A stretch of 64,000 bases of DNA from Escherichia coli (GTDB lineage: Bacteria; Pseudomonadota; Gammaproteobacteria; Enterobacterales; Enterobacteriaceae): the NCBI RefSeq assembly GCF_016026235.1, contig NZ_CP065613.1; one strand, written 5' to 3'. Every line of letters begins with the position of its first letter. Within the stretch, counting starts at the first letter, position 1. The notes under the pieces are model-generated. The model worked only from the letters and a program-made list of their open reading frames with translations. It had not been told where the DNA came from and ran no database searches. The position numbers and the translations under genes are program-made. This document shows positions 32,184 to 33,924 of the stretch, one piece after another.

Positions 32184-32465
32184 GGTCTTCTCGCAAGTCG
32201 AAAAATATGACGCTACTTTAGCGTAATTGCTTGATTTTGTCGCTGATGGAGAAGGAGAAGAAAATTCAGGAAATGGATAAAGTAGTTATTTAGAAATGAG
32301 ATATTTTTGAAGGAAATTTTTTGGAGAATATGGTGCATCTGGGAGGATTACTCGCCTTGCGGCTCGCCCTTCGGGCCGTTGCTAAAGCAACGTTATCCTC
32401 CCTGGTGCCTGCAGTTAATACCCCTACCTCTTCGATATCTTCATTGCTGAAGATTTCGGAGAATA

Positions 32466-32542
32466 TGGTGCATCCGGGAGGATTCGAACCTCCGACCGCT
32501 CGGTTCGTAGCCGAGTACTCTATCCAGCTGAGCTACGGATGC
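32466..32542 (-). tRNA. tRNA-Arg (anticodon ACG)
   Basis: Reverse complement GCATCCGTAGCTCAGCTGGATAGAGTACTCGGCTACGAACCGAGCGGTCGGAGGTTCGAATCCTCCCGGATGCACCA. Confidence 0.95.
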
Positions 32543-32740
32543 ATCGGGAAAATTTATTTTACTGCTGATATTGATATCGCTACTAAAGCCATATCAAGTA
32601 AGAGATGGTGCATCCGAGAGGATTACTCGCCTTGCGGCTCGCCCTTCGGGCCGTTGCTGGCGCAACGTTATCCTCCCTGGTGCCTGCGGTTAATTCCGCT
32701 ACCTCTTCGATATCTTCATTGCTGAAGATTTCGGAGAATA

Positions 32741-32817
32741 TGGTGCATCCGGGAGGATTCGAACCTCCGACCGCTCGGTTCGTAGCCGAGTACTCTATCC
32801 AGCTGAGCTACGGATGC
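32741..32817 (-). tRNA. tRNA-Arg (anticodon ACG)
   Basis: Identical 77-nt tRNA-Arg sequence. Confidence 0.95.
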
Positions 32818-33016
32818 ATCGGGAAACTTACTTTACTGCAGATTTTTTGATACCGCTACTAAAGCCGTATCAAGTAAGAGATGGTGCATCCGGGAGGATT
32901 ACTCGCCTTGCGGCTCGCCCTTCGGGCCGTTGCTAAAGCAACGTTATCCTCCCTAGTGCCTACGGTTAGTACCGCCACCTCTTCCATACCTTCATCGCTG
33001 AAAGTTACGGAGAATA

Positions 33017-33093
33017 TGGTGCATCCGGGAGGATTCGAACCTCCGACCGCTCGGTTCGTAGCCGAGTACTCTATCCAGCTGAGCTACGGATGC
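33017..33093 (-). tRNA. tRNA-Arg (anticodon ACG)
   Basis: Identical 77-nt tRNA-Arg sequence. Confidence 0.95.
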
Positions 33094-33096
33094 AAA

Positions 33097-33189
33097 TGGC
33101 GGTGAGGCGGGGATTCGAACCCCGGATGCAGCTTTTGACCGCATACTCCCTTAGCAGGGGAGCGCCTTCAGCCTCTCGGCCACCTCACC
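33097..33189 (-). tRNA. serV: tRNA-Ser (anticodon GCU)
   Basis: Reverse complement GGTGAGGTGGCCGAGAGGCTGAAGGCGCTCCCCTGCTAAGGGAGTATGCGGTCAAAAGCTGCATCCGGGGTTCGAATCCCCGCCTCACCGCCA with long variable arm. Confidence 0.95.
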
Positions 33190-33504
33190 ACACGCCTCTT
33201 ACGAGTGCTTCGAAGAACTTGTTTATCGCTCATCGTCGCTGCGTGGCGCACATATTACTTTCTGAGACTTATAAGTCAAACAATTTTTCCCACACTTTTA
33301 TCGTTTGCACACTTCACGCTCAATTAGTCTGTAAAAACGTCAAAAAGAGTGTTTTATCAACAGAAAAACGGAGGTCTGACAGATAGCAGTAATGTAAAAA
33401 AATGGAGACTTAAGTTGAATGAACGGGAGTAAAGCGAAAAGACTATAGAGTGAAGGAGAAATTTTGAGGGTGCGTCTCACCGATAAAGATGAGACGCGGA
33501 AAGA

Positions 33505-33690
33505 TTAGTAACTGGACTGCTGGGATTTTTCAGCCTGGATACGCTGGTAGATCTCTTCACGGTGAACAGAAACTTCCTTCGGGGCATTTACGCCAATACG
33601 TACCTGGTTGCCCTTTACCCCTAAAACTGTCACGGTGACCTCATCCCCAATCATGAGGGTCTCACCAACTCGACGAGTCAGAATCAGCAT
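33505..33690 (-). CDS. csrA: Carbon storage regulator CsrA (RNA-binding global regulator)
   Basis: 61-aa [64 protein letters not shown]. Confidence 0.98.
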
Positions 33691-33924
33691 TCTTTGCTCC
33701 TTGAAAGATTAAAAGAGTCGGGTCTCTCTGTATCCCGGCATTATCCATCATATAACGCCAAAAAGTAAGCAATGACAAACACATTACATCTAAGCAGTCA
33801 TGGCATTACATTCTGTTAAACCTAAGTTTAGCCGATATACACAACTTCAACCTGACTTTATCGTTGTCGATAGCGTTAATGCGAATGCCGTGAAGCGAGT
33901 CCACGGCATTGCCTGACGCTTATA

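Follow-up and report, generated by a model that had tools for sequence, protein, structure and literature searches.

The window (the whole stretch of DNA analysed, 64,000 nucleotides from Escherichia coli) carries a tRNA array on its minus strand, placed directly downstream of csrA and followed by yqaB/yqaA, an arrangement as in E. coli K-12. The array comprises tRNA-Ser(GCU) and three tRNA-Arg(ACG) genes; each tRNA-Arg gene is followed by a spacer element (E1, E2 and E3, in the direction of transcription) that begins at the first base past the tRNA-Arg CCA, inside the serV-tRNA-Arg cluster. The features are given below in transcript order.

33252..33279, minus strand: promoter-like site upstream of serV (TTGACT, 16-nt spacer, TAATAT), a pattern match from a consensus scan
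33097..33189, minus strand: tRNA-Ser(GCU), serV, first gene of the operon (ARAGORN; Rfam tRNA model, 56.8 bits)
33017..33093, minus strand: tRNA-Arg(ACG) copy 1, at the argV position (ARAGORN; Rfam, 67.1 bits)
32882..33016, minus strand: Arg-type tRNA-linked repeat E1, counterpart of K-12 raV by identity to raV
32882..32900, minus strand: terminal 19-nt copy of the tRNA-Arg 3' end in E1 (19/19 match)
32818..32881, minus strand: 64-nt linker, the 5' leader of tRNA-Arg copy 2, by sequence comparison
32741..32817, minus strand: tRNA-Arg(ACG) copy 2 (ARAGORN; Rfam)
32606..32740, minus strand: Arg-type tRNA-linked repeat E2, counterpart of K-12 raZ by identity to raZ
32606..32624, minus strand: terminal 19-nt copy of the tRNA-Arg 3' end in E2 (18/19 match)
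32543..32605, minus strand: 63-nt linker, the 5' leader of tRNA-Arg copy 3, by sequence comparison
32466..32542, minus strand: tRNA-Arg(ACG) copy 3 (ARAGORN; Rfam)
32331..32465, minus strand: Arg-type tRNA-linked repeat E3, in terminal position with an internal-type body, by element identities
32331..32349, minus strand: terminal 19-nt copy of the tRNA-Arg 3' end in E3 (18/19 match)
32210..32224, minus strand: terminator-like hairpin and T-run about 107 nt past E3, a pattern match from a consensus scan

The serV gene of the window aligned with K-12 serV with no differences, and the three tRNA-Arg genes showed no difference from one another over 77 nt. A 248-nt repeat (identity 89–93%) recurs every 275/276 bp, in full agreement with the preliminary description of three identical tRNA-Arg genes spaced about 275 bp apart behind tRNA-Ser(GCU). 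Promoter-like matches in the consensus scan were no commoner in the region than in shuffled sequence; the terminator-like hairpin at 32210..32224 is likely the end of the operon.

The last 19 nt of tRNA-Arg, AATCCTCCCGGATGCACCA, were matched by the element ends at 19/19 positions in E1 and at 18/19 in both E2 and E3, the single C to T change in the copied end of E2 preserving a G-U pair. Judged from the sequence, three such 19-nt copies of the tRNA-Arg end cannot be there by chance. The preliminary description had recognised this copied end; its length of about 140 nt for the element is corrected here to 135 nt, followed by a linker of 63–64 nt, and the range that it had assigned to the array, starting at 32321, ran 10 nt past the end of the last element at 32331. 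The direct repeats of the tRNA-Arg 3' end enclose 116 nt only, in which integrase, recombinase and cargo were absent. Neither ARAGORN nor the Rfam tRNA model reported a cloverleaf within the spacer elements, both returning the four true tRNAs only. No open reading frame was common to the three elements, the copy-specific frames on the transcript strand being at most 42 aa; the other Rfam families found in the region gave sub-threshold chance matches only, among them plastid and microRNA models that overlapped the tRNAs.

Identity of the spacers and layout of the array

By sequence comparison the spacers are Arg-type tRNA-linked repeats (TLRs), known in K-12 as raV, raZ and raQ, and they are not new. 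The description of TLRs in E. coli dates from 1978 and the repeats are without known function; they are recognised by 18–19 bp copied from the 3' end of whichever tRNA or rRNA lies upstream, and K-12 carries 22 of them over ten loci (PMC8144298, which summarises the earlier sources, Egan and Landy 1978 and Rudd 1999). That description, along with a supplement in which raQ, raZ and raV are the names of the arg-locus members (PMC8144298), settles the identity. The sole functional claim or phenotype put forward for a tRNA-linked TLR (rtT) was retracted, and a strain deleted for all 22 TLRs is listed in the same supplement (PMC8144298). The elements had been described correctly in the preliminary description, which missed their identity as a long-known repeat.

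E1 was identical to K-12 raV at 130/135 positions and 98.5% identical to the first element of strain AHM21C2872I; E2 was identical to raZ at 128/135 positions and 99.3% identical to the second element of both O145 RM11626 and AHM21C2872I. E3, in spite of its terminal position, was closest to internal elements, with 95.6% identity to the third element of elppa6 and 94.8% to raZ, vs. only 86–91% to the 133-nt terminal (raQ-type) elements of the eight other arrays that have one. The three elements of the window differ from each other by 6–11%.

The covariance-model search proposed in the preliminary description returned the Rfam RtT family (RF00391) over the full length of the elements, at scores of 28.0–33.3 bits (E1 29–33, E2 28, E3 28.5; E 1.5e-4 to 1.1e-2) that lie below the 45-bit threshold of the model. 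Arg-type elements of E. cloacae scored 36.7–37.8 bits; overall the model gave 70–120 bits for Tyr, Lys and Pro types and 28–38 bits for the Arg(ACG) type. On these scores the Arg-type elements are a divergent subfamily, distantly related to RtT, and since they fall below the RtT threshold, Rfam-based annotation misses the Arg type. The core common to the window elements and to the tyrT RtT repeats is AACGTTGC..GCAACGGCCCGAAGGGCGA..GAGTAATCC. Alignment with the four K-12 tyrT repeats gave the order AACGTTGC-loop-GCAACG, (G/A)CCCGAAGGG(C/T)GA, third hairpin and GA(G/A)TAATCC, and the terminal bases followed the local tRNA, i.e., Arg in the window elements and Tyr in the tyrT repeats.

K-12 has four tRNA-Arg(ACG) genes (argV, argY, argZ and argQ) and three elements, the argY-argZ spacer being only 62 nt. 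The count of four K-12 units given in the preliminary description therefore holds for the tRNA genes, but not for the elements; a K-12 sequence with three tRNA-Arg copies, which it had named as evidence against its own reading, is not what the annotation gives, namely four. Relative to K-12 the window is shorter by exactly 139 bp, corresponding to one tRNA plus the 62-nt element-free linker. Over 5425 complete E. coli genomes there were 21501 copies of tRNA-Arg(ACG) (median 4, range 1–9). The comparison with reference genomes that had been suggested shows four copies to be the E. coli norm: in a sample of 60 genomes there were four copies in 53 (about 88%), three in 3 (about 5%), two in 2, five in 1 and six in 1. 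Ten E. coli arrays were read directly and fell into seven layouts, listed here with T for a tRNA-Arg gene and E for an element.

(T-E) x3: the window, O145 RM11626, AHM21C2872I
(T-E) x4: elppa6, EC71
T-E, T, T-E, T-E: K-12
T, T, T, T-E: O157 F1273
T x4, T-E: UPEC957C
T, T-E: A20
T, T-E, T: ETEC H10407

Internal elements are missing from UPEC957C and O157 F1273, and the terminal one from ETEC H10407. The three-unit layout was read directly in two genomes besides the window, O145 RM11626 and AHM21C2872I, and, as would be expected of this layout, a 2.1-kb query was colinear over 80% or more of its length between the window and 143 complete genomes. Among the best 40 matches to the 1-kb array, 39 were single-piece and full-length and lay over three annotated tRNA-Arg genes. 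The best identity was 98.5%, so the exact allele of the window is absent from the genome collection.

On these comparisons a four-gene array is usual, and the three-gene array of the window is a natural variant found in a minority. Unequal recombination between direct repeats is the obvious source of copy-number variation at such a locus, and the varied layouts fit repeated events of this kind, among the tRNA copies and between the tRNA ends and their copies. The substrates would be the 77-bp identical tRNA copies and the 19-bp copies of the tRNA end, and exchange between them could gain or lose 139 bp (tRNA only), about 136 bp (element only) or 275 bp (tRNA and element). The loss of one unit by unequal recombination, as put forward in the preliminary description, is plausible if the ancestor had four full units; measured against K-12 it does not hold, the window lacking 139 bp and not 275 bp. 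If, in a four-unit array, an internal element crossed over with the terminal one inside their 19-nt copies, 275 bp would be deleted and an internal-type element would be left in last place, as is seen with E3. We infer the direction and the exact event of this loss from the sequences, and three-unit arrays with a normal terminal element must, on the same reasoning, have had a separate origin.

Predicted fold and tracking of the tRNA end

Each element is predicted to fold far more stably than shuffled sequence (z of -4.3 for E1, at -56.6 kcal/mol, -5.7 for E2 and -4.95 for E3). The minimum-energy folds begin with a 5' hairpin domain. In the 3' domain that comes next, the copied strand AUCCUCCC-GG-A-UGC is predicted to pair with a 5' arm, GCACC-A-GGGAGGAU; the resulting outer helix would close three conserved hairpins and leave over an ACCA tail. 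As modelled, the geometry of the 3' domain is much like that of a tRNA acceptor/T-arm minihelix with the T-loop replaced by the conserved core. The reading of the 5' half as a decayed tRNA-Arg body, with look-alikes of the D-arm and anticodon arm, was considered and rejected: the folds show the minihelix joined directly to the core, and the tRNA detectors found no cloverleaf. A small protein similar to Tpr of the tyrT repeat was likewise rejected; a 1-nt difference in loop length shifts the tpr frame, and the three elements have no frame in common.

A consensus fold of 32 pairs was derived from 18 Arg-type elements of Escherichia, Enterobacter, Kosakonia, Brenneria and Hafnia. Tested on the same alignment from which the structure was predicted, it gave 95.1% of cells with a standard pair vs. 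87.5% when shuffled (reached in 0/500 shuffles), a covariation score of 0.263 vs. 0.134 (0/500) and 9 pairs with compensatory change vs. 6.4 (7/500); pairing dropped to 32–55% when one strand was slid. In the outer helix 97.2% of cells of the consensus fold were paired. A compensatory change in this helix was seen in Hafnia, where the T-stem of the tRNA is now GGAAG/CTTCC and both arms of the element have changed too. Two mismatches interrupt the outer helix of the Arg type, and in some copies the helix is broken by other changes (e.g., GGGAUGAU in K-12 raZ). Alignment of elements from different tRNAs with MAFFT and RNAalifold missed the variable third hairpin, and an anchored hairpin count was used instead; over 39 distinct sequences the mean anchored stem was 3.36 bp vs. 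0.54 bp when shuffled (maximum 0.97 in 1000 shuffles). Folding energy did not differ between the sense (-55.4 kcal/mol) and antisense (-56.0 kcal/mol) strands (p = 0.28), so that energy alone is no proof of a role at the RNA level; sense-specific G-U pairs were present and few.

We examined the copied end in other genomes by scanning one genome per species for the core GCRACGRCCCGAAGGGYGA, which gave at least 120 loci. Among the matches listed, the last 19 nt of the element almost always agreed at 17–19 of 19 positions with the end of the same-strand upstream tRNA. Within these matches the tracking extended to tRNA-Tyr, tRNA-Lys, tRNA-Pro (two anticodons), tRNA-Arg(ACG) and, in one case, tRNA-Arg(CCG), and to the genera Escherichia, Enterobacter, Klebsiella, Citrobacter, Pantoea, Erwinia, Brenneria, Hafnia and Gilliamella. 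Lineage variants were tracked as well: a tRNA-Tyr end reading CCGCCACCA (locus L019), tRNA-Lys with CACGCCCC (L022, L118 and L123) or with ATCCCGC (L104), and the Hafnia tRNA-Arg with ATCTTCCTGGGTGC (L105). Decayed ends were found in a few of the listed copies (L018, L020, L048 and L117). Copies linked to 5S rRNA end in AACTGCCAGGCATCAAAT and carry the core (L011, L094 and L107), in agreement with the published RrA/RrB/RrF type. Arg-type elements hold the same position in several Enterobacterales genera; their 5' halves diverge quickly, in places beyond sequence alignment, yet the length stays at 132–135 nt.

For the copy to go on following the tRNA in this way, it must have been either converted repeatedly or selected. 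The Hafnia case, in which the 5' arm has co-varied, speaks for selection on the outer helix. End tracking, compensatory helices and conserved length together suggest that the elements are not plain junk.

In Alcanivorax sp. 24 and other gammaproteobacteria the three-hairpin core was also found away from any tRNA, in 74-nt repeats that are dispersed or in tandem. These repeats hint at a repeat family from which TLRs may have arisen, or to which they may have given rise. It is conceivable, if improbable, that the core with its outer helix is an autonomous gammaproteobacterial module with two states, one anchored, where the closing helix is a maintained copy of a tRNA or 5S 3' end, and one free, as the 74-nt repeats of Alcanivorax with an A/T helix. 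If so, a repeat family targeting the 3' ends of stable RNAs would have given rise to the TLRs, as domesticated or as parasitic copies, and the minihelix with its ACCA tail might be a real ligand of tRNA-processing enzymes.

Proposed processing model, alternatives and related systems

We regard it as probable that the Arg-type TLRs are structured spacers processed in the manner of tRNA 3' ends, and that the array of the window is one natural recombination variant. The element would be co-transcribed with the tRNAs and, having a tRNA-like 3' end, would have that end set by the enzymes which mature tRNA-Arg and which would also form the leader of the next tRNA: RNase E may cut just past the CCA, the 3' exonucleases may stop at the helix, and RNase P may act at the next tRNA. 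The element would thereby act as structured punctuation within the polycistronic precursor, and the RNA released from it would be a short-lived by-product. In E. coli the canonical pathway, as outlined in PMC2190699, has RNase E cutting 1–3 nt past the CCA, followed by RNase P and then the exonucleases. In the lysT operon, spacers of 133–150 nt, which contain Lys-type TLRs, are RNase E targets trimmed by RNase II, PNPase and RNase T (PMC4176162). The mapped 3' end of the 5S-linked RrB lies 3 nt beyond its copied sequence, and recognition by RNase E has been proposed (PMC8144298). By analogy with these cases we infer a processing role for the Arg-type elements; the view in the preliminary description that they are processing substrates or decoys agrees with what has been proposed in print for tRNA-linked repeats. 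Any such role has to allow for the elements appearing dispensable, a strain deleted for all 22 TLRs being listed and natural strains lacking them in places; the short spacers of UPEC957C and O157, the missing terminal element of H10407 and the 22-TLR deletion argue against a strong function.

That the strain truly has four tRNA-Arg genes, one repeat unit having been collapsed in assembly, would agree with four copies as the norm and with the K-12-type tRNA-linker-tRNA arrangement, a 139-bp loop that a short-read assembler could skip; it is nevertheless very unlikely, in view of the 143 complete genomes colinear with the window over at least 80% of the 2.1-kb query, the 39 single-piece matches over three tRNA-Arg genes among the best 40, the same layout read directly in O145 RM11626 and AHM21C2872I, and the 6–11% distance between the three elements, which makes them assemblable. 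The elements could also be a functionless by-product of the growth and shrinkage of tandem tRNA arrays, kept only through exchange with adjacent tRNA genes by recombination and gene conversion. The number of elements varies widely and does not follow the number of tRNAs, natural and laboratory strains appear able to do without them, and their 5' halves diverge quickly, all as such an origin would have it; compensatory changes in several helices, a core kept over Enterobacterales and over different tRNA types, and a length held at 132–135 nt despite an unalignable 5' half speak against it, and we consider it rather unlikely, with some weight left to it.

Integration into a tRNA gene classically leaves behind a duplicated tRNA 3' end. 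The elements might be read as relics of a small mobile or repetitive element that settled at the 3' ends of stable RNAs, the copied end being a target or attachment-site duplication and not a mimic; the tRNA-free dispersed and tandem 74-nt repeats of the core in Alcanivorax sp. 24 and other gammaproteobacteria lend themselves to this reading, as do the Lys, Tyr and Pro types, where the 5' flank of the core is the 5' strand of the T-stem plus TTCGA, giving the core the look of an insert in a T-loop. It is made doubtful by the absence of an integrase or transposase nearby, the small size of the elements (only 130–180 nt), the same position of Arg-type elements in several Enterobacterales genera, and a copy that still tracks changes in the tRNA, something to be expected of a dead scar only under conversion or selection. 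A function in trans is a further alternative, in which a released minihelix-like RNA ending in ACCA would sequester a factor that binds tRNA or RNA, e.g., RNase P, the CCA-adding enzyme, 3' exonucleases, Hfq or CsrA, and so couple that factor to transcription of the tRNA operon. The fold kept with compensatory changes over five genera, the core conserved among elements linked to different tRNAs, the place of the array directly downstream of csrA, and the in vitro binding of Hfq and CsrA by the 5S-linked RrA, RrB and RrF (PMC8144298) could all be cited for it. We think it unlikely all the same: 19/19 tRNA-linked TLRs scored <0.01 in a CsrA-binding predictor, the only phenotype reported for a tRNA-linked TLR (rtT) was retracted, a strain deleted for all 22 TLRs is listed (PMC8144298), and many natural strains have a single Arg-type element.

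The feature itself is real and long known in E. coli tRNA operons. Newly supported here are the tracking of the upstream tRNA end across Enterobacterales and the covariation of the Arg-type fold in five genera. The serV-tRNA-Arg spacers should be labelled in annotation as tRNA-linked repeats, a class that has been without known function for more than 45 years. Variation of tRNA-Arg(ACG) between 1 and 9 copies is ordinary repeat-driven polymorphism, and it calls for caution in assembly and in studies of tRNA gene dosage and codon usage.

Among known systems, the duplications at attachment sites of integrative elements resemble the array in that a direct repeat of about 20 bp from a tRNA 3' end flanks non-tRNA DNA; they differ from the window, where there is no integrase or cargo and the insert is a conserved, structured 116 nt that occupies this place in different genera. 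The 3' external transcribed spacer of leuZ (Lalaouna et al. 2015, as cited in PMC8144298) is likewise an RNA that comes out of a tRNA precursor through processing that depends on RNase E; as presented in that citation, it differs in base-pairing with the small RNAs RyhB and RybB, and in being unrepeated and without a copy of a tRNA end. RrA, RrB and RrF, which lie between the two terminators of rrnA, rrnB and rrnD, belong to the same family by the published definition and are co-transcribed with a stable RNA and processed, with a 3' end just past an 18-bp copy; unlike the elements of the window they carry a copy of the end of 5S rRNA, and in vitro they show binding to Hfq and CsrA, whereas tRNA-linked TLRs are predicted not to bind CsrA (PMC8144298). 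The RtT RNA (rttR) of the tyrT operon (RF00391) shares a homologous three-hairpin core, the CCA end, tandem repetition and an outer helix built from the copied T-stem and acceptor 3' strand of the upstream tRNA, with Tyr-type arms in tyrT; the Arg type differs in being without the segment of TTCGA plus first hairpin, in scoring 28–38 bits and in not keeping the tpr frame. Closest are raV, raZ and raQ of the K-12 serV-argVYZQ operon, which have the same locus, the same position after tRNA-Arg and the same 19-nt copy, with 95–96% identity to raV and raZ. The window differs from K-12 in pairing three tRNAs with three elements, where K-12 has four tRNAs and three elements, and in a terminal element that is of the internal, raZ-like type and not raQ-like.

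Terminal element of the window array

The last of the three elements on the minus strand of the window occupies the terminal position of the array; it is listed here with its flank and with the csrA gene.

32331-32465, minus strand: terminal element, body of the internal (raZ-like) type
32300-32330: flank downstream of the terminal element
33500-33700: csrA, the gene immediately preceding the tRNA operon

In the window this element is internal-type, whereas a 133-nt raQ-type one fills the terminal position in the other eight arrays that carry such an element. Its downstream flank starts TATTCTCC, the usual sequence after a true tRNA-Arg, and not TCTTCTCC. The end of this element together with the flank looks like a recombinant junction.

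Spacer variation in other arrays

Short and element-containing spacers are also mixed in serV-tRNA-Arg arrays elsewhere in Enterobacterales, namely in E. cloacae (locus L014, arranged as two tRNA-Arg genes without an element, then two each followed by one), Kosakonia (L086), Brenneria (L061) and Hafnia (L105). Element length was kept at 132-135 nt in E. cloacae, Kosakonia and Brenneria, the three measured, also in cases where the 5' half is too diverged for sequence alignment. Within E. coli, tRNA-Arg genes three and four of O157:H7 F1273 (L125) are separated by a 102-nt spacer; it differs from both the 62-nt linker and a complete element, and may therefore represent a partial deletion. The terminal element is wholly absent after the last tRNA-Arg of ETEC H10407 (L128), where 148 nt separate that gene from the start of yqaB.

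E. coli XL10-Gold (NZ_CP081008.1; genome H31) had tRNA-Arg(ACG) matches in six places. The best of these lies under "hypothetical protein" annotations, distant from the usual locus; a duplication that arose in the laboratory, or a copy derived from an episome, may account for this.

Copied ends and the hairpin core

Several elements keep an intact core, but their 3' end has lost its match to the upstream tRNA (10-13 of 19 positions) or is replaced by unrelated sequence.

Elements with decayed ends
Citrobacter: L006, L021
Acerihabitans: L018
Gilliamella: L117
Oceanospirillales, downstream of tRNA-Arg CCG: L020, L048, L080

Such mismatched elements show that decay of the copied tRNA end is possible.

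The hairpin core of these tRNA-linked repeats (TLRs) was also seen, among the matches listed, as dispersed and tandem 74-nt repeats in several gammaproteobacteria. The core order is AACGTTGC-loop-GCGACG, GCCC-GAA-GGGT and a third hairpin, with CATAAAAAA bordering the repeats.

Core repeats among the matches listed
Alcanivorax sp. 24: L065-L079
Alloalcanivorax: L095-L098, L115
Pectobacterium zantedeschiae: L090-L091
Halomonas: L106
Arsukibacterium: L109-L112

ARAGORN found no credible tRNA adjoining the 74-nt repeats. The predicted fold of the unit has three hairpins closed by an A/T outer helix, and no Rfam family matched the unit at E up to 0.01.

Proximity to csrA

CsrA is reported to be bound in vitro by 5S-linked members of the TLR family (PMC8144298). 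That the array directly follows csrA is nevertheless probably a coincidence, because tRNA-linked members score <0.01 in the published CsrA-binding predictor (PMC8144298).
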